Counted from the first letter of the stretch, positions 2,675-39,184 are shown. The stretch: 43,408 bases of DNA from Opitutales bacterium (GCA_031556275.1 JAVBTG010000021.1:1-43408); one strand, 5' to 3'. Notes: a model not told the origin generated them from the letters alone. Numbers and translations: made by a program.

Positions 2675-2693
2675 AATTTAAACAGTGTGCGCG

Positions 2694-3581
2694 TTAGTCC
2701 AAAACGCGCGAAGTCGCTTTCCATTCGCCCTGCACGGGTTTTCCCATTTTTTCGTAGGTCGCGCGCGGAATCATCGTTCCGGGGGCCACCTTGTTGCCGG
2801 GGGCGGGCGGCTGCGACGCCGAGGGATTAAACCCTTTGCCGCCGCCCGAAAGCGCGGGCCTTGCGTTGCTGCCCTCCTGCAACACGGAAGCGGGCAGTGG
2901 GGCTTCCCGAATGGGGGCGCTGCTGCGGGGCTTGGAATCGTAGTTGGAAAAAAGCGTGTACTCGACGGGCCGTCCGGTTCCCGTGGGCCCCTGTGCGCCG
3001 GCCACCTGCACGGGCAATCCGCCCTCTGCCGAATCGCTCTTGCGGAACTGGTAACGGTTGATGTCCCGCATGGAAAGCTGCTTGGAAAAATTCACCATAT
3101 TCGCCCCGGTCGGCCCGATGTGCGCCTTCACCGCGTCGCGGTATTTGGCGGACATGTAGTTGTCGCGCTGGGTCGCCTTGTCGTAGCGCGGGTCTATTTT
3201 TTTGGAGTCGACATATTCCTTGGTGCGGTACTCCTTCGATCCATAGTCCAACATCTCGTAATTGAACGACTTGAATTCCTTTGTCTGCGAGGTGTCCCAT
3301 CGCGCCTTCTTGTTCAGCAGGTCGGAGCTTTTCCCGTTCCACACCTTGTCCCCGATCGTCGCCCTCTCGGCTCCCATGCGCTTGTTGAGCTCCGGCTGCT
3401 TGGTGTCCGAATACCCCTTGAGGGTTGGCCGCTGCTCCGCGTTGAAAGACTGCGCCGTCTTCGTCGTGTCAATGACGGGAGTGGCGCCCGAATCGGGTTT
3501 TAGCGGCGACTGGCCATACCCAACCGCCGCCGCCCCAAAAAGAAGCAGCCCGCAAAAAGATATGAGGCGCGGACACGGCAT
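2694..3581 (-). CDS. hypothetical secreted protein (signal peptide, K/Y/D/R-rich)
   Basis: 295-aa ORF. The N-terminus MPCPRLISFCGLLLFGAAAVGYG looks like a signal peptide. I recognise no family. Confidence 0.6.
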   Translation of the reverse strand: MPCPRLISFCGLLLFGAAAVGYGQSPLKPDSGATPVIDTTKTAQSFNAEQRPTLKGYSDTKQPELNKRMGAERATIGDKVWNGKSSDLLNKKARWDTSQTKEFKSFNYEMLDYGSKEYRTKEYVDSKKIDPRYDKATQRDNYMSAKYRDAVKAHIGPTGANMVNFSKQLSMRDINRYQFRKSDSAEGGLPVQVAGAQGPTGTGRPVEYTLFSNYDSKPRSSAPIREAPLPASVLQEGSNARPALSGGGKGFNPSASQPPAPGNKVAPGTMIPRATYEKMGKPVQGEWKATSRVLD

Positions 3582-3621
3582 CGACCCATTATCCTAGCGA
3601 TTCCCTTAAAAATTGGCAATC

Positions 3622-3637
3622 CGCAAAGGAAAGGCCA
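3622..3637 (-). promoter_or_regulatory. sigma-54-like -24/-12 element (TGGCCT-N5-TTGCG on the minus strand)
   Basis: The reverse complement of 3622..3637 reads TGGCCTTTCCTTTGCG. GG and GC have the canonical 10-nt spacing. The -12 GC lies about 40 nt upstream of the ATG at 3581, and the element is downstream of the rpmB terminator. Confidence 0.35.
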
Positions 3638-3649
3638 AGCCAGTGTTTC

Positions 3650-3697
3650 AAAAACAAAAAACCGTTCCATAACTGTTATGGAACGGTTCGTTTTTTG
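3650..3697. terminator. bidirectional rho-independent terminator (downstream of rpmB)
   Basis: aaaaacaaaaa-ACCGTTCCATA-actgt-TATGGAACGGT-tcgtttttt: an 11-bp perfect stem flanked by A and T runs on both sides. Confidence 0.8.
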
Positions 3698-3709
3698 TTA
3701 AAAATTGTT

Positions 3710-3946
3710 CTATTTAACAACTTTCTCGACCAGACCCTTTTTGAGGGCCTTGACGGACACCCAGGCGCGCTTGGTCTCGCCGTTGGGGAGCTTCACCAGC
3801 GTCTTCTGGACGTTGGGGCGGAAACGGCGGGTCGTCTTCTTGGTGACGTGGGTGCCGATGCCGCCGCTTTTCTTGCTCTGGCCCTTACGATGAATGATGC
3901 GGCCCTTGACGGGGCGCTTGCCGGTGACGGCGCAAATGCGTGACAT
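3710..3946 (-). CDS. rpmB: 50S ribosomal protein L28
   Basis: MSRICAVTGKRPVKGRIIHRKGQSKKSGGIGTHVTKKTTRRFRPNVQKTLVKLPNGETKRAWVSVKALKKGLVEKVVK (78 aa), read from an internal ATG of the 179-aa track ORF. The upstream extension has no L28 homology. Confidence 0.93.
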   Translation of the reverse strand: MSRICAVTGKRPVKGRIIHRKGQSKKSGGIGTHVTKKTTRRFRPNVQKTLVKLPNGETKRAWVSVKALKKGLVEKVVK

Positions 3947-4023
3947 GGGAATCGTTGGATTAAAGGTGAAGGTCGTTAAAAGGTTTATTCTGGTTTTTTT
4001 AAATCCCTTTGGCAAGCAGAAAT

Positions 4024-5013
4024 CTAATATTTCCCGCGCACGCCCGAGAGGATTTGAAAGCGTGCCCCCATCTGCCCCGGATGCAAAATCTCCATTAACG
4101 CGCGCTTTTCCGGGTCGGCGGGGTCGGTGTTTTGGATAATTTCGCCGACGGGCTTTAGGGCGTTTTTCATAAAAAACGCCTCCTGCCGCAAGGTGTTTAC
4201 CTGAGTGAATTTGTGCGCTTTTAAAACGCCTTCGAGGTCGTCCCAGCACACGTCACAGGTCAGGTCGGAGTCCCCGATATTCCTCAGTAAATCGCCCGAC
4301 ACCGTGTGGTGGCGGTACGCCCGTGCCGTGCCTTCGGGAAAGCTTTCGATGAGTTCGCCAAAAAACTTTCCGTAGTCGGCAGTGATAAACGCTCCCTCCC
4401 AGTTTTGCGCGCAGACGGCGCTCAAGGTTTTGGGCGCTTCCAGTGAAATGTCCAGCCGGTAGCCCTCGGGAACATCGCGTTGTTCGATGATGAAAAGAGG
4501 GACGGATGTCTCTAGCAGGCATTCTTCCAAGATATCGCCATTTACTCGCACGCCGATTTCGCGCCAGCCTTGCGGGGTGTTGCGGAAGGAGCGAAAGGGT
4601 TGGGCGTCGAGCCATTCGTTGGCGAAAACCGCCGCTTTTTTCGGGATCTCCAGCGGTTGCCCGAGCCGCAGGCAGAGGGTGTCTTTAAAGGGGCCCTTGT
4701 CGGCGTCGAACAGGCCGCGCCCCGGTTCCGCGCCGATCTCGACGAGGGTGGCTTGCTCGCAAAAATCGCGGCCAAGCAGGGTTTCAAAGCAGGCGAGCAC
4801 CAGTTGGGCGAATACGCCGCCTTTGAGGGTGGAAGCGGTGTAAAAATCGGTGTCGGCGGACTTGCCCACACGGGCACGATTTGCCTGCGCATAATAGCCG
4901 TGTTCCGGCAAAAACAGGGCGGCGCGGGAAAAGTCCTCGTACGAGACGGCCCCCTGCGCGTTTGCCATGCCGCGCAGGTGTTTTATGATCGCTTCGCTGT
5001 GGGAAATTTCCAT
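4024..5013 (-). CDS. SAM-dependent methyltransferase, MidA/NDUFAF7 (DUF185) family
   Basis: 329 aa from MEISHSEAIIKHL...: VSYEDFSRAALFLPEHGYYA...DFYTASTL...LVEIGAEPGRGL...ANEWLDAQPF...FITADYG. The track ORF (to 5682) continues as a shadow over tsaD on the other strand. The start was chosen at the ATG at 5013. Confidence 0.75.
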   Translation of the reverse strand: MEISHSEAIIKHLRGMANAQGAVSYEDFSRAALFLPEHGYYAQANRARVGKSADTDFYTASTLKGGVFAQLVLACFETLLGRDFCEQATLVEIGAEPGRGLFDADKGPFKDTLCLRLGQPLEIPKKAAVFANEWLDAQPFRSFRNTPQGWREIGVRVNGDILEECLLETSVPLFIIEQRDVPEGYRLDISLEAPKTLSAVCAQNWEGAFITADYGKFFGELIESFPEGTARAYRHHTVSGDLLRNIGDSDLTCDVCWDDLEGVLKAHKFTQVNTLRQEAFFMKNALKPVGEIIQNTDPADPEKRALMEILHPGQMGARFQILSGVRGKY

Positions 5014-10727: not shown

Positions 10728-13061
10728 ATGGCTGCGAAGAAAAAATTACGGACCGTGTCCATTTTTGTGGCACTCGTGTTGTTGGTGATGACCGTCGGTG
10801 CGATGGTTTATTTTTCGGTGTTCCACGACAAGACGTCCGCGCAGCTCATCTTGGCCAAGGCCGCCCTCGATAGCGGGGACAAGGAGAAGGCGTACAATAT
10901 CTACCACGCCATATCGCTGGCCGATAAAACCTCGGAGGAGACGTACCGGGCGCTGGCGGAACTTTCGGAGGAAAGATCGGACTACAAGGCCGCCGGATAT
11001 TTCTGGGCGCAGGCGGCGAGGCTCAATCCGCTGGACAAAACCCTTGGCGCCAAGGCGCTGGAGTGCGTCGCCGTTTCCCGAAGCGACAACCTGCTGGCCA
11101 TCCGATACGAAGAGGTGCAGGACAAGGCGGGCCTGCCCGAGGATTTGCGCTTCACGATCGCGATGACGCTTTTGCGGCTGAGAAAGACCGCCGACTTGGA
11201 CGCCCTGTATCAGACCTTCGAGACCGCGCAGTATAAGGATTTGCTGGACGCCTACAAGCTCATCGCGGAGCGCAAGGGCATGGATTTGGCGCAGAAGATT
11301 TTTGAGGACGCCTCGGCCTCCAAAAACAGGGCGGTGGCCAACCAGGCCCTAATGGGGCTGGCCATCTGCAAGTCGATGACGGACAATATCGATCTGGCCC
11401 TCTCCCTGCTCGAGCGGATCGAGGATCCCGCCTTGGCACTCAAGGGCGACAAACTCATATTTGAGGGCCGCCTGCTGCGCTCAAAGGGCGACGGCAAAAA
11501 GGCCTTGGAGAAATTCACGCAGGCTGAGCGCCTGCAGCGGGGGAACCTGATCCTCGTCGTCGAATTGGCGGAGCTGGCCTACTCGATGGAGAACGCACAG
11601 GTGCTTGAGCAATTGCTCGAAAGCCTCGCGGCCTACAATAAGGACATGCTGACGCTGCGGTACTATTTCGCGGGGCTGCTGGCGGGCGTGAACCATAACT
11701 GGAGCGAGGCGGCCAAGAATTTGGAGATCTCGGGCAATTTTAGAAAGACGCTGCCCGCGCGGCTGCTCGCGATCAAGTGCGCGACGGAGAACAACGACGC
11801 CAACCTCGCGGCGCTGGGTTTGGCGGCGCTGCCCGTTCAGGACTTGTCGCCCCAGATGCGCGTGAACATCGTGAACGCGCTGGTGCCGCTGCTGAAAAAG
11901 AACCAGGGCAACAAGAACCTCTACAACGCGATGTACAAGCTCGCGCCGGATAATATTTTCACGAACGCCTTGGTCATGCGGGATTCGTTGGAAAAAGGTG
12001 AATTCGCAAACGCGATGAGCGAGGCGGAGAAAGTCCTTGCGGCGGATCCCTACGACAAGGCGTCGGTCGTGGTCGCCTGCGTCGCGGCGCTGAACCTGAA
12101 GCGGCCCGACGTGGTGTTGAAGCGCGCCGCCATATATTTGGAGAAAAATCCGGATGACATCGACCTGCGCCTGCTGGTGGCGCGCGCCTACATCCAAAAG
12201 GGCGATCTGGCGCAGGCCAAAGCCAATTACATGCTGGCCTTGCGGGCCAGCGACAACGCGGCGATCGTCGCGGAGGAGGCCGGCTTTTTCTTCGTGTACA
12301 ACAACTTTGAGGCGGATTTGAAGGCGCTGCTCGCGACGCTGGGGACGAAGGAGTCCGCCGTGCAAAAATCGCTGGGCTTGGCGCTGGAGGCGGAGGCTTT
12401 GATCCGCGCCGCCGACCGCGCGGGCGCGGCGGAAAAGCTGCGGGCAGCCATAAAGCTCACGCCTAAGGCGGAGCCTCTGTACGGCGTTTTGGCGGCCTGT
12501 TATATTGCCTTGGGCAAAGGGCCGCAGGCGCGCGAAGTGTTCGAGGAAGGCATCGCGGCGACGGGCGGGATGAATCTGAAATTCCAATTCGCGCTGCTTT
12601 TGTGCGAGGGTTCCAAGGAAGAGGCCGCCGAGGCGTTGGCCATTTTGAAGGCGCTGAACGCGGCGCGCCCGAACGACAAGAACATACTGATGATGACGGC
12701 CGTCGCGCAGCTCAAACTCGGGGCCGCGGAGGACGCCTTGGACTCGGCCCGAAAAGCGCAGGAACTGGCGCCCAACGCTCCAGGCATCTTTTTCCTGATC
12801 GGCAAAATCATGTTCGAGCTCGGGCGGCACGACGGGGCGACTTACAATTTTGAGCGCGCGATCCTGCAGGACGAGAACAACCCGGAAATCAAAAAAATGC
12901 TGATAAAGGCGCTGGAGATGGGGATCGCCGCCAACCCGCCGCAGATGCAAAAACGCCTGTATCTCGAGAGACTTTTGAGGTTCAACCCCACGGACGAAAA
13001 GGCCAAGGCGATGCTGGACGGCATCAACAAGGCCATTTCCGAGAGCCGCAATGCAAAATAG
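10728..13061 (+). CDS. membrane-anchored tetratricopeptide-repeat protein (PEP-CTERM system TPR protein-like)
   Basis: 777 aa. The N-terminal anchor is KKLRTVSIFVALVLLVMTVGAMVYFSVF. The rest is A/L/K/E-rich with repeated ...A...Y..A..L.P.. TPR-like units. It overlaps the downstream exosortase gene by 11 nt. Confidence 0.75.
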   Translation: MAAKKKLRTVSIFVALVLLVMTVGAMVYFSVFHDKTSAQLILAKAALDSGDKEKAYNIYHAISLADKTSEETYRALAELSEERSDYKAAGYFWAQAARLNPLDKTLGAKALECVAVSRSDNLLAIRYEEVQDKAGLPEDLRFTIAMTLLRLRKTADLDALYQTFETAQYKDLLDAYKLIAERKGMDLAQKIFEDASASKNRAVANQALMGLAICKSMTDNIDLALSLLERIEDPALALKGDKLIFEGRLLRSKGDGKKALEKFTQAERLQRGNLILVVELAELAYSMENAQVLEQLLESLAAYNKDMLTLRYYFAGLLAGVNHNWSEAAKNLEISGNFRKTLPARLLAIKCATENNDANLAALGLAALPVQDLSPQMRVNIVNALVPLLKKNQGNKNLYNAMYKLAPDNIFTNALVMRDSLEKGEFANAMSEAEKVLAADPYDKASVVVACVAALNLKRPDVVLKRAAIYLEKNPDDIDLRLLVARAYIQKGDLAQAKANYMLALRASDNAAIVAEEAGFFFVYNNFEADLKALLATLGTKESAVQKSLGLALEAEALIRAADRAGAAEKLRAAIKLTPKAEPLYGVLAACYIALGKGPQAREVFEEGIAATGGMNLKFQFALLLCEGSKEEAAEALAILKALNAARPNDKNILMMTAVAQLKLGAAEDALDSARKAQELAPNAPGIFFLIGKIMFELGRHDGATYNFERAILQDENNPEIKKMLIKALEMGIAANPPQMQKRLYLERLLRFNPTDEKAKAMLDGINKAISESRNAK

Positions 13062-13884
13062 GTTTTTCAGGCATATCGCCAAATATCCTTTTGGCATGAA
13101 GGCGTTGATCGCCTTCGTGATGCTGTGGAGCTTGTGGAACGCGTGCAACTCGTCCCTGAAGGAGTCGGCGTTGGCGCTCTGGGGGCTGGGGTTGGCGATG
13201 TTTTTTGTCTCGTGGAGGGAGTACAACCCAAGCGCGATTTCGCCGTTTATTTTGAAGGCGATCGCGTTCGGGCTGGTCGGGCTGAGTTTTCTTTTTTCCG
13301 GCCCGAACGAATGGTGCCTGTTTTTGATAGCGCTGGGGACGGGGGTGTTTTTCGACAAGCTCAAGGCGCCGCAAAAATTGGTCTTCCCCTTCCTCATCTG
13401 GATATGGGCGGTGCCCAACTGCGAGAATTTGCACCTGATCATCAGCCACCCGATGCGCGTGATCGGCGCGATTGTCTCGGCCGGGGTGCTGAATCTTTTC
13501 GGGATATCGGCCGCCGCCGACGGCACGATGATAAACATCGACGGGATGCCGGTGGCCATCACCACGGCGTGCAGCGGCGTCGAGCAGTTGGAGGCGATGG
13601 TCCTGGTCGGGTGGCTGTGCGCCAGCTACATGCACCGAAAGACGCTTTTGCGCCTGGTGCATTTCTCGACGATCATACCGATTATTTTGGCGTGCAATAT
13701 CCTGCGCCTGACCGTCACGCTCGCGGGGGCGCACAAGTACGGCGAGGTGTTTTTGTCCGACACGGTGCACACGGCGCTGGGCTTTGCCACGGTGTTTTTG
13801 GTGTTGTTGATTTTTGTGGGGGTGGGGGAACTTTTCCGCGAACGGCCCGACGAAAAACCCGCCGAGGCGAAGGAGGCTCAATGA
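13051..13884 (+). CDS. exosortase family protein
   Basis: 277-aa polytopic protein with the exosortase catalytic landmarks in order: TTAC(174)SGVEQL, ACN(216)ILR(219)LTV, DTVH(240)TALG. An alternative start is the ATG at 13096. Confidence 0.85.
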   Translation: MQNRFFRHIAKYPFGMKALIAFVMLWSLWNACNSSLKESALALWGLGLAMFFVSWREYNPSAISPFILKAIAFGLVGLSFLFSGPNEWCLFLIALGTGVFFDKLKAPQKLVFPFLIWIWAVPNCENLHLIISHPMRVIGAIVSAGVLNLFGISAAADGTMINIDGMPVAITTACSGVEQLEAMVLVGWLCASYMHRKTLLRLVHFSTIIPIILACNILRLTVTLAGAHKYGEVFLSDTVHTALGFATVFLVLLIFVGVGELFRERPDEKPAEAKEAQ

Positions 13885-14981
13885 AGCCGTTGCTCAAAAA
13901 CATCCTGTTCGCGCTGGCCGCCTTGCCACTGCTTTTAAAGGTGCCCTACCTGACGATGGTGTGGCGCGACACGCCCCTCGACAGCAAGGATATGTATATT
14001 TGGATGTCGCTGCCGGTAGTCGCGTTTCTCTCGGAGGTCATCCGCAGGCGGCTGGGGATTTTCGGCGACGTGAACAATTACAAAAGGCTCACGGCCTGCG
14101 TGCTGGGGTTGGCGGTCGTGGCGTATGCCGTCGTGGCGTTCAAGGTGAACGCCGCCGGGATATTGCTGGGGATCATGATCCTGTCGCTGGCGGTGGAGCT
14201 GCGCTTCGGCCGCAGGATTTTCGTCTCGCAGTTTCCGACGATGTTTTTCGCCGTGCTGTCCTGCCCGTCGCTCTCGTACTGGCTGGACTACTATCTGCAC
14301 ACGGGCATCAGCGAGTCCACCTCTTATTTTCTGATAAAGATATCGTTGGGGATTTCGTTCTTCGCCTTTTGGAATTTGCGCACGCTGGCGAAGGGGCGCT
14401 ATCCGCGGATATCGTCGGTGCTGTTTTTTGTCTTTGCGCTGTTCGCGCTTTTCTTCCTGAAAATCCGCACGCAGACGCTCGAGGCGGGGGCCCCGTTCGA
14501 CATCAACACGGCTAAGCTGCACGCCGCCGACTGGATTTGCGAAAAAATCCCCGTGAGCGCGGCCGACCGGAAGTTTTTCGCGTCCAGCCCGATTGAGCGC
14601 AGGGCCTATTTCAACGACGACTCCAACGTCAATTTGCTCGCGCTGAAGGTGAACGACATCTCCGCCGTCCACCCCATTGGGATTTGCCTGAAAAGCGCCG
14701 GTTACGACGTGTCCTCCTCGAGGCAGATTTATGTGGAGGTGGCGGGCCGCCGCATACAGGTGAACGAGCTGAGGATCTCCAACGAGGGTAGGGAATACAT
14801 GGGCTATGCCTTCTTTTCCAACGGGCGGCTCACGACGGGGGATTTTACGAAATTCCGGTTCTCGAACGCGCGGCAGAATAGATGGATGCATTATCAGATC
14901 ATCGCGCCGTTCACCGAGAGCGAGGAAATCTCGCGGGCGAGGGTGCTGAGCCTTTTGGAGAATTTTGGGACGACGCGCTGA
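13881..14981 (+). CDS. membrane protein with divergent exosortase-like N-terminal domain fused to an EpsI-like C-terminal domain
   Basis: Real start is the ATG at 13881, preceded by AGGAGG (13871..13876) and overlapping the exosortase stop (ATGA). The track ORF 13125..14981 fuses it to an out-of-frame shadow. The first ~200 residues hold about 6 TM helices. The C-terminal ~150 aa (..NLLALKVNDISAVHPIGICLKSAGYDV..) resembles the EpsI family H-P-x-x-C-(L/Y)-x-x-x-G motif. Confidence 0.7.
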   Translation: MKPLLKNILFALAALPLLLKVPYLTMVWRDTPLDSKDMYIWMSLPVVAFLSEVIRRRLGIFGDVNNYKRLTACVLGLAVVAYAVVAFKVNAAGILLGIMILSLAVELRFGRRIFVSQFPTMFFAVLSCPSLSYWLDYYLHTGISESTSYFLIKISLGISFFAFWNLRTLAKGRYPRISSVLFFVFALFALFFLKIRTQTLEAGAPFDINTAKLHAADWICEKIPVSAADRKFFASSPIERRAYFNDDSNVNLLALKVNDISAVHPIGICLKSAGYDVSSSRQIYVEVAGRRIQVNELRISNEGREYMGYAFFSNGRLTTGDFTKFRFSNARQNRWMHYQIIAPFTESEEISRARVLSLLENFGTTR

Positions 14982-23263: not shown

Positions 23264-24883
23264 TTATGATTTTGAAAATAAATAATCAAGAATTCTGTCA
23301 CCACGAATTTTTTCATTCGCTTCCCACTCGATTGGAGTCCAGCGTTGGTTACTTAGTAAATCAATAGCGTCTTGGATCAATGACCCCTCATACTTTTGCT
23401 TTTTGCGATCAAAGAATTCGTTTCTGGCGCTAATATTCAATTTTTCTTCCAACGGAATTACGTTGCCCAAAGTATCTTTGGCGGTTTTCCAATTATCTTC
23501 TGTCCATCCGCCGTCGTAATTATTCCAATTTTTAGGTAATATATGCTCTTTATGGTGTTTTGAAGATGTTATATATTTTCTGAATTTTTTCTTATTTTGC
23601 CTTGGATTTAGGTATGCTGTCAATAGGACTAGCCCATCAAAATATCTGCCGGAAATGTCGCCAAATATTTCTCTTTCAAATGTGTGTTTGTCTTTTTCAT
23701 CCAAATTGTCTGCATAGTCTTTCAAATAGTCTTTATTTTCTTCTATGGAAACATAAACCTTAAAGGAGGTGTCTCTTACCGAGCTCACAGAATTGTGGAC
23801 AAATCCTTTGATGAAGAAATACTTTACTGTCATGTTCAGAAGAAGCTCAAAGTCCACGAGTCTTTCATTATCGAGATGGAATAACCCGTTTGAAAGCTTT
23901 CCGTGTTTAAAAAGGAACACGTATAAGGGAAATTTCCAATATTGATTTGGATACGTTTCCATTATTTCCCAAAGGCTAACAACCTCGTCATTTGGCTCCC
24001 ATTGACCAATAGCGTCTAGAATATTTAATTGATCTAAGATGCCCTTCCAGTTACTTAGTCGTCTATTTTGTTCTTCTGTGAAATAATTTCTCAACGCGAT
24101 TTCTCTTCCTGAATTTTTTTCTTTTGCTCGTCCGGCATGCATCAAGACTCTGAAATATTGCTCGTGATTGGAGAGTTTGTTCCATCTTTTGATAACATCT
24201 TCATTTTTTCCTGAGAAATTATAGAGCTTTGCTTTAAATATATCGCTATCCGTTAGCGGCAACCCTCGGTTATTGATCGTCTCGAAAATAATTAAGGCGT
24301 CATCCTCCGAATCGCAATGGATGGGGAGGATGACGACAGAGTCGAGAAGTTTTAAAATAAGATTTTCAAATTTAGCCGAATCATTTCCGGAATTCTTGCG
24401 CCATTCTGCGATTTCATTTTTGAAAAAGAGGAAGTTTTCCTTAATTTTACATTCTGGAGTACTTTCTGGTCCCTTTAGTACTAGGTCGTTCAAATTTTCT
24501 TTGTCACTGGCGATTACTTTCGATTCAATTTTCAGCTCATCTTTGAGCCGTGATGTGAGTGGATCACTAGTTTTAATGCATTTAGCAAGTACTTCATAGG
24601 TCCCTGCATGATCAAATAAAGCTTTTATAAGAAGAACAAGGGTCGTCAGGCGTTGTTGCCCGTCTATTACGACATATGATTCATGTTCTTTATATATGAC
24701 AATATTTCCTAAAAAATATTTATCTTCAGAGCTGGGATCTTTATTGAGAAAATTAAGAAAGTCATCCCATAGTTGTTTGCAGTGATCGATCTCCCATGAA
24801 TAGGGACGTTGATAATCTGGAACTATGTATCTCTCATTGAAAATATCTCTTATTTTTTTCGGATCCGCGTGAATAGCTTTCAT
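23264..24883 (-). CDS. DUF262/DUF1524 (GmrSD-family) putative type IV modification-dependent restriction endonuclease
   Basis: 539 aa. The N-terminus has YIVPDYQRPYSWEIDHCKQLWDDF and VVIDGQQRLTTL (DUF262 / ParB-like NTPase motifs). The C-terminus has HHKEHILPKNW ... GNVIPLEEKLNISARNEFFDRKKQKY (DUF1524 His-Me finger-like). G+C is about 35-40% in the lines I counted, against 63% in a groEL line. Confidence 0.85.
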   Translation of the reverse strand: MKAIHADPKKIRDIFNERYIVPDYQRPYSWEIDHCKQLWDDFLNFLNKDPSSEDKYFLGNIVIYKEHESYVVIDGQQRLTTLVLLIKALFDHAGTYEVLAKCIKTSDPLTSRLKDELKIESKVIASDKENLNDLVLKGPESTPECKIKENFLFFKNEIAEWRKNSGNDSAKFENLILKLLDSVVILPIHCDSEDDALIIFETINNRGLPLTDSDIFKAKLYNFSGKNEDVIKRWNKLSNHEQYFRVLMHAGRAKEKNSGREIALRNYFTEEQNRRLSNWKGILDQLNILDAIGQWEPNDEVVSLWEIMETYPNQYWKFPLYVFLFKHGKLSNGLFHLDNERLVDFELLLNMTVKYFFIKGFVHNSVSSVRDTSFKVYVSIEENKDYLKDYADNLDEKDKHTFEREIFGDISGRYFDGLVLLTAYLNPRQNKKKFRKYITSSKHHKEHILPKNWNNYDGGWTEDNWKTAKDTLGNVIPLEEKLNISARNEFFDRKKQKYEGSLIQDAIDLLSNQRWTPIEWEANEKIRGDRILDYLFSKS

Positions 24884-24936
24884 GGGAATTTATTGATGTT
24901 TTAAGAATTATAAGATCTCTTCATATCAACAAAAGG

Positions 24937-24965
24937 TATAAAAGATCATTTTTGGAAATTGTCAA
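24937..24965 (-). promoter_or_regulatory. sigma-70-type promoter for the DUF262 gene (TTGACA-17-TTTATA)
   Basis: The minus strand reads TTGACAatttccaaaaatgatctTTTATA. A perfect TATAAT also occurs at 24907..24912 (minus strand). The region is AT-rich, so the call is pattern only. Confidence 0.4.
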
Positions 24966-24984
24966 GACTATCGTCTCGCCACAT

Positions 24985-25018
24985 AAAAAGGCACTTCCAA
25001 AATTGGAATTGCCTTTTT
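24985..25018. repeat. right copy of the 34-bp direct repeat (degraded terminator hairpin)
   Basis: aaaaaGGCACTTCCaaaattGGAATTGCCttttt is identical to 23208..23241 except G->T at 25009, which breaks one stem pair. It lies 22 nt downstream of the stop of the crotonase remnant, as a terminator for that remnant would. Confidence 0.8.
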
Positions 25019-25040
25019 ATGTGTCTTTTTACGGAACGTC

Positions 25041-25228
25041 CTAGTGTGTGATGTGCTCGACGTCGAGGTCGAAGGCTTTGCCTTTGAAGACGGGGGTGTT
25101 TTTCGAGGAAGGAAAGTATACCTTCTTTGTAGTCAGCGTTGTCGTGGATGCTGCGCGCCAGACTTGGATGTGAACATCTCAGGGGTGAGAAACGAGTTTT
25201 TCTTTTGTTAAGCGCGGGATTGACATTT
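25041..25228 (-). pseudogene. decayed 3' remnant of a paralog of the methylmalonyl-CoA decarboxylase-like gene at 27549..28370
   Basis: By hand alignment, about 80-85% nt identity to 27549..27735. The first 49 nt have 8 mismatches. The minus strand encodes ...DYKEGILSFLEK...FKGKAFDLDVEHITH* against the intact DYKEGILSFLEKRPPSFKGKASDLDAEHITH*. Several 1-3 nt indels break the frame, and nothing upstream of about codon 60 from the end survives. Confidence 0.75.
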
Positions 25229-25367
25229 ATTTGCCGACCAAGGCGGGTATGAATAATTCAATGGGGCGGGTGGCGGAATGCTGTTTGCGTGGTAAAAAAG
25301 GGGATGAATATAAGGCGCGTTTTTGAAGGGCGCAAAAGTGTTTGCGCCCGTTTGGAGGGAGGGCATA

Positions 25368-27488
25368 ATGCCTGCAATGATGCGATTTTTTAACTGTGTT
25401 TTTTTGCTGTTGGCGGGCGTTGTCTCTGGGACGTTGGCTGGCGAGGGCGCGGGGGCGGTTTTTTCGTTTGAGGCGAAGGATACTTTTTGTGCGGTTGAGC
25501 TGGATTGCGGGGAGTCGTTTTCTTTTAAGCTGGGGAATGGGCAGAGGCGTGTTTTTGAGTTGGTTTCGGTGGGGGCGCGCGTGCTGTATTCCAATTTGAA
25601 AACGCCCAAGCGGGCGCAGGCGGACGGGGCCCTGGTTTATGAGATGCGGGCGCGGATGCTGGCGGACGGGGAGCCTGTTGAGCTTGTGCGCTATGCTTCC
25701 ACGCAGGAGGCTTTTTATGAGCCTTGGACGGTGAACGGCGTGCGGCTGTGGTTTGACGGGGTGCGGGATGTCGGCGCATTCATGACGGAGAAGCACGGGG
25801 TGTGCTTGCCGCGCAAGCAGGCGCGCTTCGCCTTTCAGGACGCCACGATGCGTTTGTGCCCGGAGCGCGTTTTTCTGAGCTTGGAGGAGGATGCCTCGAC
25901 GCTGCCGATCGCGCGTATTCATAATGGGGACGACACATGGATGGGCGCTTTTCTCGGTGCGGACGCGCATAACGGGCTGGATGTGAATTCGCCCATTGGC
26001 GCGCCGTTGTTTGCACCGATTGCATTCGACACGCAGTTTCTTTTCGAGAGCCTCGCAAAGGGGGATGACAACAATCGCTGGCGGGCCGTTCGCACGTGGC
26101 CCGACGGGACGCGGTGGATTTGGCAGGCGCATCATCTGCTGTCCGCCTTTCCCCCCGAAGGCGCGCCCGTGCGCGGGGGCGATGTTTTTTGCGAGGCTGC
26201 GGGCATCAAATACGGCGCGCATCCGCACACGCATTTTATGTTCAGGGTCGGGACTTCGGAAGATATGGACGAAGCCGCCAACGCCGGCATTTTGGTCGAT
26301 CCGTGGATGATGTTTTGGCAGGGCTTTGAGGACAGGCGTGACGAACGGGGGGATGTGCGCGCGCGGATGAAGCCCTTGGCACCTGCGGAGGCGGGGGTGG
26401 CGGTGCGTTTTAGTTCGGCCGTCTCTAATGGCGGGAACGGGCGGGCGATTCGCAACCGTGTGTGGACGTTTGGCGACGGCGGGATTTCCCATGAGGCGGA
26501 GCCTACGCATACGTATCGCCAAAGCGGCGTTTATTTTGTGACGCTGACGGTGGACGACGGAGCACGTTTGGCGCAGACGACGCAGGCGTTGACCGTGCGG
26601 GCGAATCCCGGCTTCAAGGACGACGTGCCCGACTTTGTGTTGGAGGCTCCGCTGGAAGAGGGGTTTGAAAAATGGATGGACGGGGTGGCGGAGGTTTACG
26701 GGCAGCCGCCCGCGCGGATGCCCGCGCGTTTAAAATGGGTCGCGCGCAAGGAATCGCCTACTGTTTTGGAGCGGTGTTTGGTTGTGCGTTGGCTCGGTGC
26801 GATGACGTTGCCGATGTTGAAAACGCGCATAACCCCGATAGACGGGAATGAGAAGCAGCGGCCTCCTGATTGGCTGGAGGTGATGCAGGTCGCCTCGGAT
26901 GACGGGTTGCGGGTGCATGTGCGGCTGAAAGCGGACGCTTTGCCCGCGCCCGGGCGGTATGTGGTGCGCGTGAATGTCGAGGCCGAAGGCGCGCTCAATC
27001 CCAAGCAAAGTTTTGAAGTCGAGTTGCTGGTGCCGAATTCGCCCGCGTTCCCGCCGCGCAGCCGCCGCGTTCAGCATCCGCGCGAAAAAATAGTTTCCTG
27101 CCAAAGCCCGGTCGGGTTTTACGCAACGCCCTATTTTTGGATCGCGCCGCAGTTTCAGGGCCAGCCGGAGGGGGTGTCAAAACCCTATCGGATGAACGGG
27201 GGGCGCGCCGATCCGGACGCCTTCGCGCGGTTTGCGCCGGATTTGGAGAAAGGGCGTTATCGCGTGCGGTTCGCGTCGCCGACGCCCTTTGCCGAGCGCA
27301 CCCGATTCCAAGTGCGCGTGCGCCATGCGAACGGAATGACGACGCGTTGGGTGGAGCCTGCCAAGGATCGTCTCATCGGCGAGTTCTCGTTTGAAGAAGG
27401 GGTGGAGGGCTTTGTCGATTTGCTGGCGGATCAGGCCGAGGGGCAGGTGATTGCGGATGCCTTGGTTTTTGAGCGGTTGTCGCCGTGA
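25368..27488 (+). CDS. secreted M23 (LytM)-like peptidase domain + PKD domain protein with a large uncharacterised C-terminal region
   Basis: The start at ATG 25368 is preceded by GGAGGGAGGG. The signal peptide is MPAMMRFFNCVFLLLAGVVSGTLAG. M23-type metal motifs are AH-NGL-D...GAPLFAP and GAHPHTHFMF (HxxxD, HxH). The PKD signature is VWTFGDGGISHEAEPTHTYRQSGVYFVTLTVDDG. The last ~280 aa match no family I recognise. Confidence 0.7.
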   Translation: MPAMMRFFNCVFLLLAGVVSGTLAGEGAGAVFSFEAKDTFCAVELDCGESFSFKLGNGQRRVFELVSVGARVLYSNLKTPKRAQADGALVYEMRARMLADGEPVELVRYASTQEAFYEPWTVNGVRLWFDGVRDVGAFMTEKHGVCLPRKQARFAFQDATMRLCPERVFLSLEEDASTLPIARIHNGDDTWMGAFLGADAHNGLDVNSPIGAPLFAPIAFDTQFLFESLAKGDDNNRWRAVRTWPDGTRWIWQAHHLLSAFPPEGAPVRGGDVFCEAAGIKYGAHPHTHFMFRVGTSEDMDEAANAGILVDPWMMFWQGFEDRRDERGDVRARMKPLAPAEAGVAVRFSSAVSNGGNGRAIRNRVWTFGDGGISHEAEPTHTYRQSGVYFVTLTVDDGARLAQTTQALTVRANPGFKDDVPDFVLEAPLEEGFEKWMDGVAEVYGQPPARMPARLKWVARKESPTVLERCLVVRWLGAMTLPMLKTRITPIDGNEKQRPPDWLEVMQVASDDGLRVHVRLKADALPAPGRYVVRVNVEAEGALNPKQSFEVELLVPNSPAFPPRSRRVQHPREKIVSCQSPVGFYATPYFWIAPQFQGQPEGVSKPYRMNGGRADPDAFARFAPDLEKGRYRVRFASPTPFAERTRFQVRVRHANGMTTRWVEPAKDRLIGEFSFEEGVEGFVDLLADQAEGQVIADALVFERLSP

Positions 27489-34192: not shown

Positions 34193-34268
34193 GGGGCCGT
34201 AGCTCAATTGGGAGAGCGCCACAATGGCATTGTGGAGGTCGTCGGTTCGATCCCGATCGGCTCCACCA
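34193..34268 (+). tRNA. tRNA-Ala (anticodon GGC), CCA encoded
   Basis: Hand-folded cloverleaf: acceptor GGGGCCG/CGGCTCC with the G3:U70 alanine identity pair, D arm GCTC-aattggga-GAGC, anticodon arm CCACA-atGGCat-TGTGG, T arm GTCGG-ttcgatc-CCGAT, then ACCA. Confidence 0.93.
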
Positions 34269-34294: not shown

Positions 34295-34326
34295 AAAAGG
34301 AATCCCTGAAGAAGGGATTTTTTTGT
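34295..34326. terminator. bidirectional rho-independent terminator
   Basis: aaaagg-AATCCCT-gaaga-AGGGATT-tttttt lies between the tRNA and the convergent 983-aa gene. Confidence 0.7.
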
Positions 34327-34329
34327 GCC

Positions 34330-37281
34330 CTACGCAGCCCGCTTGCGGCGGGTGGCCAGCCATGCCAAAAGGGCCGCGCCGCCGCCCATGAGGAAAATCG
34401 AGGGTTCGGGGGCTTCCGTGAAAGAGAGCGTGTCGGACGAGGCGAGGGCCTGTTTTTCGGCGCGAACAACCGCCTCCCATTGCGCGGTGTTTTCGACGAC
34501 GATGTTGGCGGTGAAGGGGACGAGTATTTCCGTTTTCTTCGCCTCGCCCACGAGCGCGGGCAGCTCGGTGTCGATCAACGAGGGGTTGCGTTCCATTTTA
34601 AGCGCCTTGGCGTAGTTTAAAACGCCGTCCGCCCAAATGCCGTTGACGGGGTGAAGCTTTTCGTGGGGGACAAGCTTCCATGTTTTTTCGACGGGGTCGT
34701 AATATGCGGGGGCTTCTCCGGTTGTTTCAAACGCGAGCAGTTGAGGTATGTGTGCGCCGATGCTATCCGCCACCGGCCATATCTGCCCGCCGACAGACAC
34801 GAGTTTGACGGGGACGGCGCGCGTTTCAAATCGGATATGGAGATCCGTTTTGGGCTGGATGGCGAGCGGCGCAGGTGCTTCGGGCGCGCATGCGGCGAGC
34901 AAGCGCAAGATAGGCGATTCGCCTTTGAGTATTTCTCTTTTTGTGACGACCATGAAAATAGGATATTCCATGAACCGGCCGTCCTTTTTGAGATGTTGGC
35001 ATGCGTAGAGACGGGCTTGTTGCATTAGGGCGTTTTCGATGAGAAAGCCGCCTTCCAATGCGGGCACTCCGGGCGTTTTCTCATCAAGATTCGCCAGATG
35101 GGCCTTCCATTGGGAGAGCGGGAGCGTCTCGCCGTTTTTAAGCGGGGTGAGCTGGTAGTTCAGAAAGCTCACTTTCGCCGGAAAGTCAGGGCCTGTTTTT
35201 TGGATGAGGCGATCCACGATGCCGACCGCGGCCTTGGCATGGCAGCCGTCAAGGCCGCGGTCGACGATCAGGTGCAGCACGGGCGCGCGCGTCACGGGCT
35301 TGCAAGGGAGAGTTTTGTAAAAATGCTCCGAAGCAAGAACGGTTGAGATGGAATCGGACGCGATGGCGATTTGTCGGGCGTTTGATCCCTGTGAATCAGG
35401 CAACGTGGTGGATTTGCCGCTATGGATTTTTCCGCCCGCACAGATTGGGTGCAATAGGTCGATTTCCAGCGTGCGGTGGCCGTGGGCGGGAACAGGGAAG
35501 ACGGAAAGATGTAAGCTGCTGTCGCTTTTGTAATAGAGGATGGCGGGGTCTTTTTGAGTATGGGCGCGGATCATTTGGTAGACCCATAGCGCCGACTTTT
35601 TCTCGAAAATCCGGCCGGGAACGGGATTGCCGTCGATGTGTAGACGTATGCCTGAAATCAAGACGGCTTCCGGCAAATTCCATATGTCGACGAATTCGCC
35701 GTCGGTGCCGGTGGGGTTTTTGATGGTAAGGGTGTAGGTGGATTTTACCATGCCGTCTTCCTGAATTTGCTTGCAGGAGGCTTGAGCGGTGATGTTTGGG
35801 TTGGAAAAGGGGTTGCCGCGTATTTTATGCGTGCGCCGCACGTCGCTTCGTCCCCAGACATTTCCCCAAATTTCGCTCGGGCTGCCTTCCAGCCATTGGC
35901 GGTCAATTTTTCCCGTAAAGGCGGTATACACCTCCATCATGCGCTCGTCGGTGAAGACGAGGCCGTCGAACATGATTTTTCCGCGAAGCGGCGAGATGAT
36001 CGGCATGTATTTGCCGCTTTTGTAATCCGCCAGCCAGCGCAGTGCGTGCTCGACGCTTTGGGGGGAGGCGCTGAAACGCATCGGCTTGTCCGTGTCGGGC
36101 GCGCAGACGTAGCTGAGGGCAGAGCGCAAGGCGTGGCGGTAGTAGTAAGACTGCCCTACCACCCATGCGGGCATGACGGCGAACCCCGCCAGCGCGAGGA
36201 TGACCAGCAGCGCGCGCGGGTAGGCCGCGCCGTTTGCGCGGCAGGCGAGGTAGCCTTCCTTGAGCTTAAGCAGGTGTAGAATGAAAAGGACGGTCGGTGT
36301 GAGGATGAGAAAGCCCGCTCCCGCAACAAGGATGGCCGGAATGCTGAAAGGCAGGAAGGGGAGGAAGACGAAGAAGAAATAAAAGGTGAAGGAAAAGCAG
36401 ACGCAGCGGGCGAACCAGACGGGCAATGCCCATTTTCCATGGGCGGGGAGGATCAGCGCCAGCGTGTTGATGACCACCAGCGCGTAGACCCATGGGGTTT
36501 GGAAATCGACCGGGAAGGGGATCTTGATATTGAGCGCCATACCTCCGAGCGGAAGCACGAGCGCGACGACGAATGTCAGCATCCACGGAGGCACGAAACG
36601 GTTGTTTTTGAAAAACAAAAACAGCAATATCATCAGCCGTAACAGGCACACGCCCATGGCCAATGTGACGACGATCACTCCGAGAAGGATGAGCCATAGG
36701 GTGAATTGCTCGTTGATAATCCTGAAAGAGTCATAATTGGTTGTCCATTTTGCCGCCCACACGGCCATATGGCCGAAAAAATAAATAGCCAGCGGAATCC
36801 CGATAACCCCGCCCGCGCACAGGGCGGATTCTGTGCCCTTGCCATGCTTAATCGGGCGGCAGGCAAAGCACAGCGCGGCGTAAAAAAGTGCCGGCACGCA
36901 TCCTGTCAGCTGCGCGAACATGATGGGGCCTTCGGCCAGAATCCAGCGATCGACGGACGCGGGGAGGATGACATTGATGTGCGCGACGGCGAACCACAGG
37001 TATGCTGTTTGCAAAACGAAGGCCGTTGCCGCGGTGGCGTAGCCGACGGGTTTTTTTCGCAAAAATAGGATAAGGCTCCAGACGACGGCGACGGACAGGA
37101 TGGAGAGGTTGGCCAAGCCCCATTGCAGGGCGCAGGTTTTCTGCGCCTCGTTGGCCTCGCCTTGGACAAGCCCCCAGTCGCTGAGGTTGCTTAGCAGCAG
37201 TAGCGCCATCGGCAGCGCCCAGACGAGCGCGAGCATCCACGGTTTGAAAACGAAATCAGGCAGCGGGCGATGGTTTTGCAT
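34330..37281 (-). CDS. polytopic membrane protein with VIT-like and vWA-like domains and a C-terminal PEP-CTERM signal (MSEP-CTERM / XrtN-system-like)
   Basis: 983 aa. The first ~390 aa hold many TM helices. The VIT-like block is FVDIWNLPEAVLISGIRLHIDGNPVPGRIFEKKSALWVYQ...DPAILYYK...LHLSVFPVPAHGHRTLEIDL. The vWA-like block has a degenerate MIDAS (VLHLIVDRGLDGC). The tail is EAPEPSIFLMGGGAALLAWLATRRKRAA. An alternative start is the ATG at 37236. Confidence 0.8.
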   Translation of the reverse strand: MQNHRPLPDFVFKPWMLALVWALPMALLLLSNLSDWGLVQGEANEAQKTCALQWGLANLSILSVAVVWSLILFLRKKPVGYATAATAFVLQTAYLWFAVAHINVILPASVDRWILAEGPIMFAQLTGCVPALFYAALCFACRPIKHGKGTESALCAGGVIGIPLAIYFFGHMAVWAAKWTTNYDSFRIINEQFTLWLILLGVIVVTLAMGVCLLRLMILLFLFFKNNRFVPPWMLTFVVALVLPLGGMALNIKIPFPVDFQTPWVYALVVINTLALILPAHGKWALPVWFARCVCFSFTFYFFFVFLPFLPFSIPAILVAGAGFLILTPTVLFILHLLKLKEGYLACRANGAAYPRALLVILALAGFAVMPAWVVGQSYYYRHALRSALSYVCAPDTDKPMRFSASPQSVEHALRWLADYKSGKYMPIISPLRGKIMFDGLVFTDERMMEVYTAFTGKIDRQWLEGSPSEIWGNVWGRSDVRRTHKIRGNPFSNPNITAQASCKQIQEDGMVKSTYTLTIKNPTGTDGEFVDIWNLPEAVLISGIRLHIDGNPVPGRIFEKKSALWVYQMIRAHTQKDPAILYYKSDSSLHLSVFPVPAHGHRTLEIDLLHPICAGGKIHSGKSTTLPDSQGSNARQIAIASDSISTVLASEHFYKTLPCKPVTRAPVLHLIVDRGLDGCHAKAAVGIVDRLIQKTGPDFPAKVSFLNYQLTPLKNGETLPLSQWKAHLANLDEKTPGVPALEGGFLIENALMQQARLYACQHLKKDGRFMEYPIFMVVTKREILKGESPILRLLAACAPEAPAPLAIQPKTDLHIRFETRAVPVKLVSVGGQIWPVADSIGAHIPQLLAFETTGEAPAYYDPVEKTWKLVPHEKLHPVNGIWADGVLNYAKALKMERNPSLIDTELPALVGEAKKTEILVPFTANIVVENTAQWEAVVRAEKQALASSDTLSFTEAPEPSIFLMGGGAALLAWLATRRKRAA

Positions 37282-37903
37282 GGCGGGCGAATTGAAGGAG
37301 GAAGACGACGGCTGTCAGGAAAAACAAAAACACGAGCACGCCCGCCGCCTCGTGGGCCAGCGCGTCGTAGCGGCCGTCGAAGCGTGGGTGGCTGAAGGCG
37401 TGGGCCAATACTCCCGCGCCGAGGCGGCAGGCGTTGGCGAAGACGGCGAGCGGGTAGGCCAGCAGTGGCAGCCAGAGCCAGCCGAACGGGGTTTTGCCGA
37501 GCCATGCGGGGAAGTAGTCGTTGCGGCGCAGGTGCAGCCAGTTGAGCATGCACCATAGGATGCAGAAAAAACCGAACCCGCTGCACGCGGTCGTGACGCA
37601 CACGGAGATGCCCTGATATTCAAACAATAATCCCTGCGGGATTTCTTGGAGGGGCGTGCCCAGCATCAGCGAGGCCAGCCGCGCGGCGGGGGCCACGAAA
37701 ACGTAGCGGATAAAATCGTCTGTCGGCAACGCGTCGACCGCCCCGTATAGCCATAGAGGCAATGTCGCCCAAAAAAGCTGCCGAAGGGGGCTTGCCCCCG
37801 TGCAAGATGGATTTGTCTGTGCGCGCATGATTGTCCAAACACTGAAGCGGGGCGGCCCCACTATGCGCACGTGCTTGCAGGGTTGCAATAAATAAAATGG
37901 CAA
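37256..37903 (-). CDS. minimal exosortase-family protein (dedicated, single-substrate type)
   Basis: 215 aa (190 if it starts at ATG 37828), with VTTAC(107)SGFGFF, FAN(157)ACR(160)LGAG and ALAH(184)EAAG in exosortase order. It overlaps the downstream PEP-CTERM gene by 26 nt. Confidence 0.75.
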   Translation of the reverse strand: MPFYLLQPCKHVRIVGPPRFSVWTIMRAQTNPSCTGASPLRQLFWATLPLWLYGAVDALPTDDFIRYVFVAPAARLASLMLGTPLQEIPQGLLFEYQGISVCVTTACSGFGFFCILWCMLNWLHLRRNDYFPAWLGKTPFGWLWLPLLAYPLAVFANACRLGAGVLAHAFSHPRFDGRYDALAHEAAGVLVFLFFLTAVVFLLQFARHAKPSPAA

Positions 37904-37928
37904 CCCGCGTTTCCCTCACGCCATCGCG

Positions 37929-39047
37929 TCAATTCGACTGGACGCGATGGCCGCCTTTGCCGGGGGTGTAGACTAGGCGCAGGCCGGCGTTGGGACCGTC
38001 GGGGATGATCTCGTAGGAAAAATCTTTCGCGGCATTGCCTTCCAAGCGCAGGCGGTCTCCCCCCGCGATGCGGTTGGCTTGGACGATTTGGAAGGAAAGG
38101 TTGCCAGAGGGTTTGTAGTCTTTTAGGTAATTCACGGCGATGGTGGTGCCGTCTTCGAGGCGGACGGTTGAGTTGTTCGTTTTGTCCTTCCACACCAGAC
38201 GGTCAAAGCGGTTGCGCCCCGCGATGTCGATGGAGAGGATACCGTTGGGCTGCTGGATGTAGGTTTGCGGGATGTCGCTGACAAGCGTTGTCTCGCCCAC
38301 GACGCCTTCGCCCCCCGGACTCAGGCGGCCGCCCGCGTTGGTGATGCCTTCCGACAGGTGTTTGGCGTTGAGCACTCCCCCCGTCCAATTGAAAGTGCCC
38401 TTGCCGACGCCTTTGCGCACGCCGACGCGTTCGGGGTTGGGGATATCGCACAGCAGGTTGATCGTGCCGCCCGAAAAATTGTAGACGCCCACGGCGTTGG
38501 GCGAGCAGGTGAGCGGGAAGGGGCCTGTGATGTTGAGGGCGGTGTTCACGAGCGTGAGGGTGCCGCCCGACTGCTCGAAGGTGCAGGTGGGGTCTTCCAT
38601 CGGGCCGCAACCGGCCAAGTAAAAGATGTTTTCCACCTCCATGGAACCCCCCGTCATGGAGTAGGTGCCGACCATGGGTTTCACCCCGCGCAGGCCAGTG
38701 GTGCCGTTGGTTTTGAGCGCGCCTCCCTCCTTGATGGCGGTGCGCACGCGGTTGCCGCGGTGCTGGTAGAAATTCACACTGATGGGGACGGCGATGGTTA
38801 TCGTCGTGTCGGGGCCGCCGATGCTGACATCGTCGCCCTCGCCGGGGCGGAGCTTGCGATCGACGCGGGGAGGGGTCGTGCCGTCCGCGAGCGTCTGCGT
38901 CCAAATGGGATCCGTTATGTTGCCGGATTTGAGAGCGGTAAAGCCGCGCTTGATCGGCGCGCTGCCCACCGGACGTGAGGGAGCGGGGGCCGCCCATAGC
39001 GCGCAACCGCAGGCAAACAGGGCAAGAAGAAGGATGTTTTTGCGCAT
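37929..39047 (-). CDS. hypothetical secreted protein (G/T/N-rich, beta-strand-repeat-like)
   Basis: 372 aa with the signal peptide MRKNILLLALFACGCALWAAP and repeated GG(T/S)(L/I/M).(L/V) motifs. It has no C-terminal sorting signal. It lies 25 nt upstream of the mini-exosortase on the same strand. Confidence 0.65.
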   Translation of the reverse strand: MRKNILLLALFACGCALWAAPAPSRPVGSAPIKRGFTALKSGNITDPIWTQTLADGTTPPRVDRKLRPGEGDDVSIGGPDTTITIAVPISVNFYQHRGNRVRTAIKEGGALKTNGTTGLRGVKPMVGTYSMTGGSMEVENIFYLAGCGPMEDPTCTFEQSGGTLTLVNTALNITGPFPLTCSPNAVGVYNFSGGTINLLCDIPNPERVGVRKGVGKGTFNWTGGVLNAKHLSEGITNAGGRLSPGGEGVVGETTLVSDIPQTYIQQPNGILSIDIAGRNRFDRLVWKDKTNNSTVRLEDGTTIAVNYLKDYKPSGNLSFQIVQANRIAGGDRLRLEGNAAKDFSYEIIPDGPNAGLRLVYTPGKGGHRVQSN

Positions 39048-39154: not shown

Positions 39155-39184
39155 AAAAAACCCACCGAGGTTCGGCGGGTTTTT
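39155..39184 (-). terminator. rho-independent terminator downstream of the GH32 gene
   Basis: The minus strand reads aaaaa-CCCGCCGA-acc-TCGGTGGG-tttttt, a stem with one G-U pair. Confidence 0.7.

Follow-up and report, generated by a model that had tools for sequence, protein, structure and literature searches.

This study concerns a 43,408-nucleotide (nt) stretch of DNA from an Opitutales bacterium (GCA_031556275.1, JAVBTG010000021.1:1-43408), referred to here as the window, and in particular its positions 34330..39047. Three open reading frames (ORFs) of this region encode a secreted protein of 372 amino acids (aa), a small exosortase and a 983-aa polytopic membrane protein. With a probability of roughly 85%, the locus is a two-gene sorting module of the XrtK/MSEP-CTERM type, in which one enzyme serves one substrate, in the form found in the Planctomycetes-Verrucomicrobia-Chlamydiae (PVC) clade. 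The gene of the 372-aa protein adjoins the system without belonging to it. The module reading draws on the family score of the substrate and the best-scoring exosortase model of the enzyme, on the catalytic residues of the syntenic enzyme homologues, and on the adjacency of the two genes, whose families are the only two conserved in neighbour clustering. It further draws on the predicted structure of the substrate with its match to ITIH1, on the odd number of transmembrane (TM) helices and the RRKR tail, and on a clean indel that comprises exactly these two genes relative to two related loci. The pair is a divergent copy of a catalogued one, and the features initially taken for novelties are explained away or found throughout the family. 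The elements of the locus are as follows.

34330..37281, minus strand: MSEP-CTERM family protein, 983 aa (translation, TIGR04286, AlphaFold2 (AF2), Foldseek)
37256..37828, minus strand: XrtK-type minimal exosortase, 190 aa from the ATG at 37828 (TIGR04287, catalytic residues)
37256..37903, minus strand: small ORF read from a TTG, 215 aa (translation)
37929..39047, minus strand: secreted beta-helix protein, 372 aa (AF2, Foldseek)
34328..37943, no strand assigned: XrtK and MSEP block of 3.6 kilobases (kb), missing at the same site in the related loci L084 and L089 (blastn)

The 983-aa protein is a bona fide member of TIGR04286 (MSEP-CTERM sorting domain-containing protein). It scores 327.9 bits (E 1.2e-97) against a curated cut-off of 150 bits, and residues 11-961 align with profile positions 3-898 of 920. 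The best family for the small protein is TIGR04287 (exosortase K, XrtK) at 37.5-38 bits, below the cut-off of 55; this model leads the other exosortase models by a wide margin. The TIGR04178 exosortase/archaeosortase signature gives 22 bits (cut-off 23) and Pfam Exosortase_EpsH 23.3 bits (threshold 25.7). The prospect raised by the initial annotation, that family models would claim both proteins, is thus borne out for the substrate and falls short of the curated cut-off for the enzyme.

The small protein carries the complete set of exosortase landmarks. In an alignment of 65 XrtK-like ORFs that adjoin MSEP homologues in related loci, Cys82, Asn132 and Arg135 (Cys107, Asn157 and Arg160 in the numbering of the 215-aa version) are invariant in all sequences, and His159 (His184) is kept in 64. 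The Cys, Asn-Arg and His positions singled out from the sequence alone were therefore well chosen. TIGR04287 matches 63 of these 65 ORFs, with a best E of 1.5e-28. The 'VxxTTACSG' motif of XrtK aligns to Cys174 of a 277-aa general exosortase encoded at 13051..13884 of the window. With the XrtK cysteine at residue 82, approximately 92 N-terminal residues are missing relative to the longer enzyme, in agreement with the early description of a minimal exosortase devoid of its N-terminal helices. The length of 190 aa fits the short exosortase K range of approximately 165-190 aa. A homologue search with the 190-aa protein returned only the protein itself, and XrtK proteins of the PVC type can, like the present one, score under the curated cut-off and remain without a name.

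Two observations favour the ATG at 37828 over the TTG at 37903 as the start of xrtK. In the protein collection the product occurs once (NCBI source), with a length of 190 aa, and in the alignment of 64 homologues good occupancy starts only at about residue 41 of the 215-aa reading. The three ORFs all run on the minus strand and the small ORF overlaps the 983-aa ORF by 26 nt, as originally described. The reported 25-nt distance to the 372-aa gene holds only for the TTG start; from the ATG it is approximately 100 nt.

The substrate family is large and widespread. A word-indexed protein search found 115 relatives of the 983-aa protein, the nearest being approximately 34% identical over the full length and 44% over the TM domain. 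Several relatives from Verrucomicrobia, Opitutaceae, Spirochaetota, Desulfobacterales, Hymenobacter and Chitinophagaceae already bear the name 'MSEP-CTERM sorting domain-containing protein'. Scanning one genome per species, we found a relative in at least 326 species. The best 80 of these at least 326 belong mostly to Verrucomicrobiota, Lentisphaerota/Victivallales, Omnitrophota, Planctomycetales and Kiritimatiellae, with some Gammaproteobacteria, Leptospirales and Niabella. The PVC context, regarded as unusual when the locus was first annotated, is typical for XrtK/MSEP-CTERM.

Synteny was assessed in 83 related MSEP loci, 80 of which contain enough upstream DNA. A jackhmmer search over six-frame ORFs detected an XrtK-like ORF in 68 of the 83. 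Of the 80 loci, 65 have XrtK directly upstream of the MSEP gene (median distance approximately 4 nt), and another three have it 1.7-3.3 kb away. Clustering of the neighbouring ORFs showed that only the XrtK and MSEP families are conserved around each other. In a subset of loci (L010, L034, L052, L058, L060, L066, L070, L073), additional conserved co-directional genes are located upstream of XrtK. They encode one or two polytopic proteins of approximately 400-780 aa and a small winged-helix regulator, and are absent from the window. These loci may represent an extended version of the XrtK/MSEP system.

The two genes are inherited together. L089 contains the closest homologue of the 372-aa protein (77% identical) and L084 a homologue that is 63% identical. 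Both loci share the order GH32 gene, 372-aa homologue, terminator, tRNA-Ala(GGC) and Gfo/Idh/MocA oxidoreductase gene, without XrtK and MSEP. The GH32 and MocA products of L084 are 63% and 56% identical to those of the flanking genes in the window, the tRNA-Ala(GGC) is in the same place in both loci, and the order in L089 runs on into FAD oxidoreductase and RecN genes, like in the window. In blastn comparisons, the colinearity of L089 with the window runs to 37944 and is taken up again at 34327, right after the MSEP stop codon; for L084 the corresponding positions are 37950 and 34284. The presence/absence block therefore consists of exactly xrtK and the MSEP gene, and it lies between the stop codon of the 372-aa gene and the old terminator of that gene. 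The polymorphism reflects either a gain here or a loss in the relatives. The G+C content at third codon positions is 0.72-0.77 in the block and 0.77-0.90 in its neighbours, a difference in composition that is suggestive of horizontal transfer at most. The presence or absence of these two genes next to the tRNA-Ala gene indicates that the pair moves as a self-contained module.

The AF2 model of the 983-aa protein, calculated with a 92-sequence alignment, has a predicted local distance difference test score (pLDDT) of 87.3 and a predicted TM-score of 0.88. Eleven helices at residues 14-392 are followed by a helical linker, a VIT beta-sandwich (~498-612), an alpha/beta domain (~660-880) and a conserved helical C-terminal segment. 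The chain ends with a low-confidence linker (956-961) that contains the PEP motif and a final helix (962-982). The domains and motifs map to the DNA as listed; MIDAS denotes the metal ion-dependent adhesion site.

36106..37242, minus strand: N-terminal polytopic domain, residues 14-392, 11 TM helices (hydropathy, AF2 helices)
35446..35790, minus strand: VIT domain, residues ~498-612 (Pfam PF08487, profile search, AF2)
34642..35304, minus strand: predicted vWA-like domain, residues ~660-880, detectable by fold alone (Foldseek)
35248..35262, minus strand: degenerate MIDAS motif D674-R-G-L-D678 (92-member family alignment)
34333..34416, minus strand: C-terminal tripartite sorting signal, residues 956-983 (translation, AF2)

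Hydropathy and AF2 agree on 11 TM segments. The TM domain was found exclusively in fusions, within proteins of approximately 930-1060 aa; essentially all of 599 representatives found at E<=1e-3 fall into that range. Its invariant residues (P244, G247, N251, F302, P308, G323, F324, P329) sit at helix ends on the inferred outer face, which also displays the conserved motifs LPLGG..LN, PFPxDFQ, YFFxVFLPFLP and GAGFLxLTP. The idea that this domain is an exosortase homologue that supplies the missing helices of XrtK was rejected, with an hhalign probability below 1%. The description of the product as a giant polytopic VIT/vWA-like protein with a PEP-CTERM tail holds. A polytopic cargo, initially seen as the sign of a different sorting logic, is a defining feature of the existing family.

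The only Pfam match of the protein is the VIT domain PF08487 (32.7 bits, threshold 26.5, residues 507-607). A profile search of the PDB with the family profile gave weak matches to the VIT regions of ITIH4 and ITIH1; matches to the TM regions of nicotinic receptors were discarded as noise from hydrophobic bias. No Pfam or NCBIfam vWA model matched the protein at E<=0.1. The top Foldseek matches are to ITIH1 (6fpy/6fpz), with E from 4.5e-9 to 2.6e-8 over 610-645 aligned columns. Isolated vWA domains (CMG2, 1shu; CLCA1, 6pyo) match with a probability of ~1 but E of ~0.1. Residues ~660-880 are accordingly called vWA-like from predicted structure. Given the odd TM count, the RRKR tail and the positive-inside rule, we infer an N-in/C-out topology in which the VIT-vWA module is periplasmic and the C-terminal helix re-crosses the membrane.

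The metal-binding site of the vWA-like domain is incomplete. A functional MIDAS consists of D-x-S-x-S together with a Thr and a beta4 Asp coordinating a metal. Among 92 family members, D674 is kept in 90 and the S676 position is Ser in 86; the residue at the canonical second Ser differs among members, and a beta4 Asp (position 781) is found in 25, mostly Bacteroidota-type members. The window protein reads D-R-G-L-D at the MIDAS and T-K at beta4, a combination that falls short of a functional site, and it is alone among the 92 in having Gly at the S676 position. The degenerate motif noticed early on is thus real, whereas its novelty is not: an incomplete MIDAS (D-x-S only) is largely a family trait, to which the window protein adds a unique Ser-to-Gly exchange. 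With such a site, any ligand binding by this domain is probably metal-independent.

The tail of the 983-aa protein, EAPEPSIFLMGGGAALLAWLATRRKRAA, consists of an A-P-E-P-S motif, a hydrophobic helix and an RRKR cluster. Across the family, the motif differs between clades. Many PVC members have [TAS]PEP, Opitutaceae-like members TPAP, Bacteroidota MSEP or MTEP, and Hymenobacter VPID; xSEP is found in some members, gammaproteobacterial metagenome-assembled genomes among those loci. The A-P-E-P-S motif is ordinary for the clade of the window protein. Among XrtK-adjacent homologues the PAP motif dominates. A PEP-type motif occurs in approximately 8 of 12 homologues that have enough upstream sequence and no adjacent XrtK versus 15 of 64 with XrtK, although the loci are not independent. 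The distribution of PEP and PAP tails may point to a change-over between dedicated and general enzymes, and to PEP-type tails being servable by a general exosortase. Genes of the MSEP family without XrtK within approximately 6 kb (L002-L004, L006, L008, L019, L043) mostly end in [TVA]PEP; L051 likewise has an MSEP gene without XrtK, but upstream sequence is lacking there.

The general-type exosortase of the window (277 aa, 13051..13884, plus strand) scores 45.6 bits against TIGR04178 (cut-off 23) and lies under the cut-offs of all named subfamilies. Its gene directly follows, with an overlap of 11 nt, that of a TPR protein of 777 aa whose C-terminal region is PrsT-like (10728..13061, plus strand). 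Together with XrtK, the organism has both a general and a dedicated exosortase.

It is possible to draw the boundaries of the system differently. Three co-directional genes bracketed by hairpins, with an approximately 100-nt gap between the 372-aa gene and xrtK that has no convincing terminator, could make up one functional operon, with the 372-aa secreted protein acting alongside the exosortase and the giant polytopic protein, and read-through is plausible in this genome. The comparative data make this very unlikely. None of the 83 MSEP loci yielded a tblastn or jackhmmer match to the 372-aa protein, the two closest homologues reside in the GH32...tRNA-Ala...MocA neighbourhood of L084 and L089 without XrtK and MSEP, and further members of its family (41-59% identical, some of them from a single assembly) adjoin sulfatase, GH38, MatE and MraZ genes. 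The fold of the protein, a CBM89-like beta-helix, also speaks against this operon. Based on these searches, the neighbour clustering over the 83 loci and the synteny of L084 and L089, we dropped the three-gene cassette proposed in the initial annotation; it is conserved nowhere among the loci examined. Another candidate is the pair of XrtN with its VIT-domain protein, XrtN having been suggested initially as the enzyme of an XrtN / MSEP-CTERM pairing. In either system a VIT-domain protein has an exosortase of its own, and the XrtN-system VIT model TIGR04477 finds a weak local match over the VIT region of the 983-aa protein, at 24.5 bits with a cut-off of 250. The XrtN model TIGR04476 (cut-off 200 bits) has no match to the small protein at E<=0.1, and only 6 of the 65 syntenic XrtK-like homologues show weak XrtN matches. 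With the family scores this far from those of the XrtN system, the assignment was dropped as having next to no chance of being correct. MSEP-CTERM pairs with XrtK, and the system is XrtK/MSEP-CTERM.

Another alternative retains the two-gene boundary and changes the role of the enzyme: the general exosortase would be the main processor of the PEP tail, and XrtK would be redundant or act, for example, in assembly or quality control of the 11-TM domain. The canonical x-P-E-P motif of the window protein, the general enzyme encoded elsewhere in the window behind the PrsT-like TPR protein and the higher frequency of PEP motifs in loci without adjacent XrtK are compatible with this view. XrtK nevertheless keeps every catalytic residue, overlaps the substrate gene by 26 nt and is co-inherited with it as one block, and it also adjoins the MSEP gene in 15 PEP-type loci. 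We consider this alternative unlikely. Several observations weigh against the two-gene module itself. XrtK scores below its curated cut-off (38 versus 55) and is marginal for the general exosortase signature (22 versus 23). In 12 of the 80 loci no XrtK is found within approximately 6 kb. The tail motif is APEP and not MSEP, the TIGR04286 alignment ends before the signal region (898 of 920), and a PEP tail might also be a target of the general enzyme at 13051..13884. Finally, we found no experiment on any XrtK/MSEP-CTERM system in the searchable literature, in spite of its occurrence in hundreds of species, and cleavage, acceptor and function are therefore all inferred.

A mechanism for the XrtK/MSEP-CTERM module can be proposed by analogy with exosortase, archaeosortase A and sortase chemistry. 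The 983-aa protein would insert with a cytoplasmic N-terminus, so that the VIT-vWA module faces the periplasm. The XrtK cysteine could then attack the PEP motif near the outer leaflet via a Cys acyl-enzyme intermediate and take off the C-terminal helix. The acyl intermediate would be hydrolysed, releasing the C-terminus, or the protein would be passed to an acceptor. Since the protein retains its own 11-TM anchor, processing would alter the tethering of the periplasmic module and not lead to secretion. The effect of XrtK processing on a protein that is still membrane-anchored is the main question, which concerns the whole family and not this locus alone.

In an extension of this scheme, the 11-TM domain could be an obligate partner of XrtK, involved in docking or acceptor delivery, and XrtK might transfer the C-terminus of the VIT-vWA module to an envelope glycan or lipid, generating an inner-membrane-anchored, covalently cross-linked tether. 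The occurrence of the domain in the MSEP family only and the clustering of its invariant residues at the inferred outer-leaflet face prompt this proposal, which we regard as quite improbable. Such a reaction would parallel, in bacteria, the C-terminal transfer of inter-alpha-inhibitor heavy chains. The structural match to an ITIH heavy chain provides a testable idea of what C-terminal processing achieves.

Compared to the catalogued XrtK/MSEP-CTERM system (TIGR04287 and TIGR04286), the window shares a protein of approximately 950-1000 aa with a polytopic N-terminal domain, a VIT domain and an exosortase-type C-terminal signal. The substrate is far above its cut-off, and an exosortase of approximately 165-190 aa is located directly upstream in a one-to-one relationship. 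The differences lie in A-P-E-P instead of M-S-E-P, the XrtK score of 38 against 55, the approximately 34% identity to the nearest homologue and the Gly in place of the MIDAS Ser present in 86 of 92 members. The TIGRFAMs XrtK and MSEP models were built mainly on Bacteroidota. The window copy comes from a PVC-type genome, and the present scan shows the family to be abundant in PVC lineages. The system is described only in the model library.

ITIH1 (6fpy) has the same VIT-then-vWA order and overall fold of the extracytoplasmic module (Foldseek E 4.5e-9), at 10% sequence identity. ITIH heavy chains are cleaved near the C-terminus and covalently transferred to a glycan. Unlike the window protein, ITIH has a complete metal-binding MIDAS and neither a membrane domain nor an exosortase signal, and it is eukaryotic and secreted. 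The XrtN system (TIGR04476/TIGR04477) likewise combines a dedicated sorting enzyme with a single neighbouring VIT target, but uses another enzyme subfamily, the scores of which are not reached here (24.5 versus 250). In marine proteobacteria, a dedicated sortase with a VIT-vWA target (TIGRFAMs) follows the same design with a different enzyme subfamily. General PEP-CTERM/exosortase systems (EpsH/XrtA-type, for example the 277-aa enzyme of the window) share the Cys/Arg/His core and the tripartite PEP signal. In these systems one enzyme of ~8 TM helices serves many, mostly soluble, secreted substrates, whereas XrtK has approximately 92 fewer N-terminal residues and a single polytopic substrate.

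Dedicated one-to-one sorting systems with adjacent genes have been described by Haft and colleagues (bioRxiv 10.1101/2023.06.07.544157). Our literature search returned exosortase phenotypes for XrtF in Flavobacterium (PMC10936215) and CrtB in Nostoc (PMC12188702) only, and nothing for exosortase combined with 'VIT domain'.

The 372-aa protein, initially taken for a secreted partner, has a hydrophobic N-terminal signal and no Pfam or NCBIfam family. It has 8 homologues in 5.8 billion clusters. The AF2 model (pLDDT 88.4) is a right-handed beta-helix, and the best Foldseek match in the PDB is 7jvi (E 1.5e-4, TM-score ~0.35-0.39), the xylan-binding beta-helix module CapCBM89 (PMC8810776). Most economically, the protein would be a secreted accessory of the GH32 locus with a glycan-binding role; its gene would be an older resident of the site that belongs functionally with the GH32 gene. 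The family amounts to 9 lineage-restricted secreted beta-helix sequences without a Pfam or NCBIfam model and may be an unclassified glycan-binding family. Several of the members 41-59% identical to the window protein are found in one assembly, GCA_029548565.1. In L089, the closest relative, the region 1088..4210 shows a second GH32 gene that is not in the window, and a homologue split into ORFs of 107 and 254 aa, which suggests a frameshift or pseudogene.

The locus is flanked by two hairpins and a tRNA gene.

34295..34326, minus strand: weak hairpin with a T-rich tail right after the MSEP stop codon (folding)
39155..39184, minus strand: strong intrinsic terminator of the upstream GH32 gene (folding)
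34193..34268, plus strand: tRNA-Ala(GGC), convergent with the operon, which marks the conserved downstream flank (ARAGORN, Rfam 62.3 bits)

Both hairpins had been annotated as terminators. The one at 39155..39184 is strong, with -18.6 kcal/mol (z -4.1) and a stem of 13 base pairs followed by six U. The hairpin at 34295..34326 is weak (-7.7 kcal/mol, z -1.6), but a near-identical sequence sits after the 372-aa homologue in L089 (~4327..4360), and it is an ancestral terminator of the intergenic region. The A-run, hairpin and T-run between the operon and the tRNA-Ala gene are kept almost base for base in L089, despite only ~72% identity of the coding DNA to that of the window, which suggests a functional bidirectional terminator. 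Between the 372-aa gene and xrtK, folding is no stronger than in shuffled controls (z -0.8, -0.7). Because no convincing terminator was found there, read-through transcription of all three genes is possible in this genome.

Two further features of the window lie outside the locus. ARAGORN reports a tRNA-SeC(TCA) at 14607..14683 on the minus strand. This call overlaps long ORFs, has no tRNA or tRNA-Sec counterpart in Rfam at the gathering threshold and is probably spurious. The stretch 24001..26000 has a G+C content of 0.455 compared to a window mean of 0.58. The ORFs near it, at 23264..24883 (minus strand) and 25323..27488 (plus strand), match no NCBIfam family, and the low-GC stretch may be foreign or non-coding DNA.

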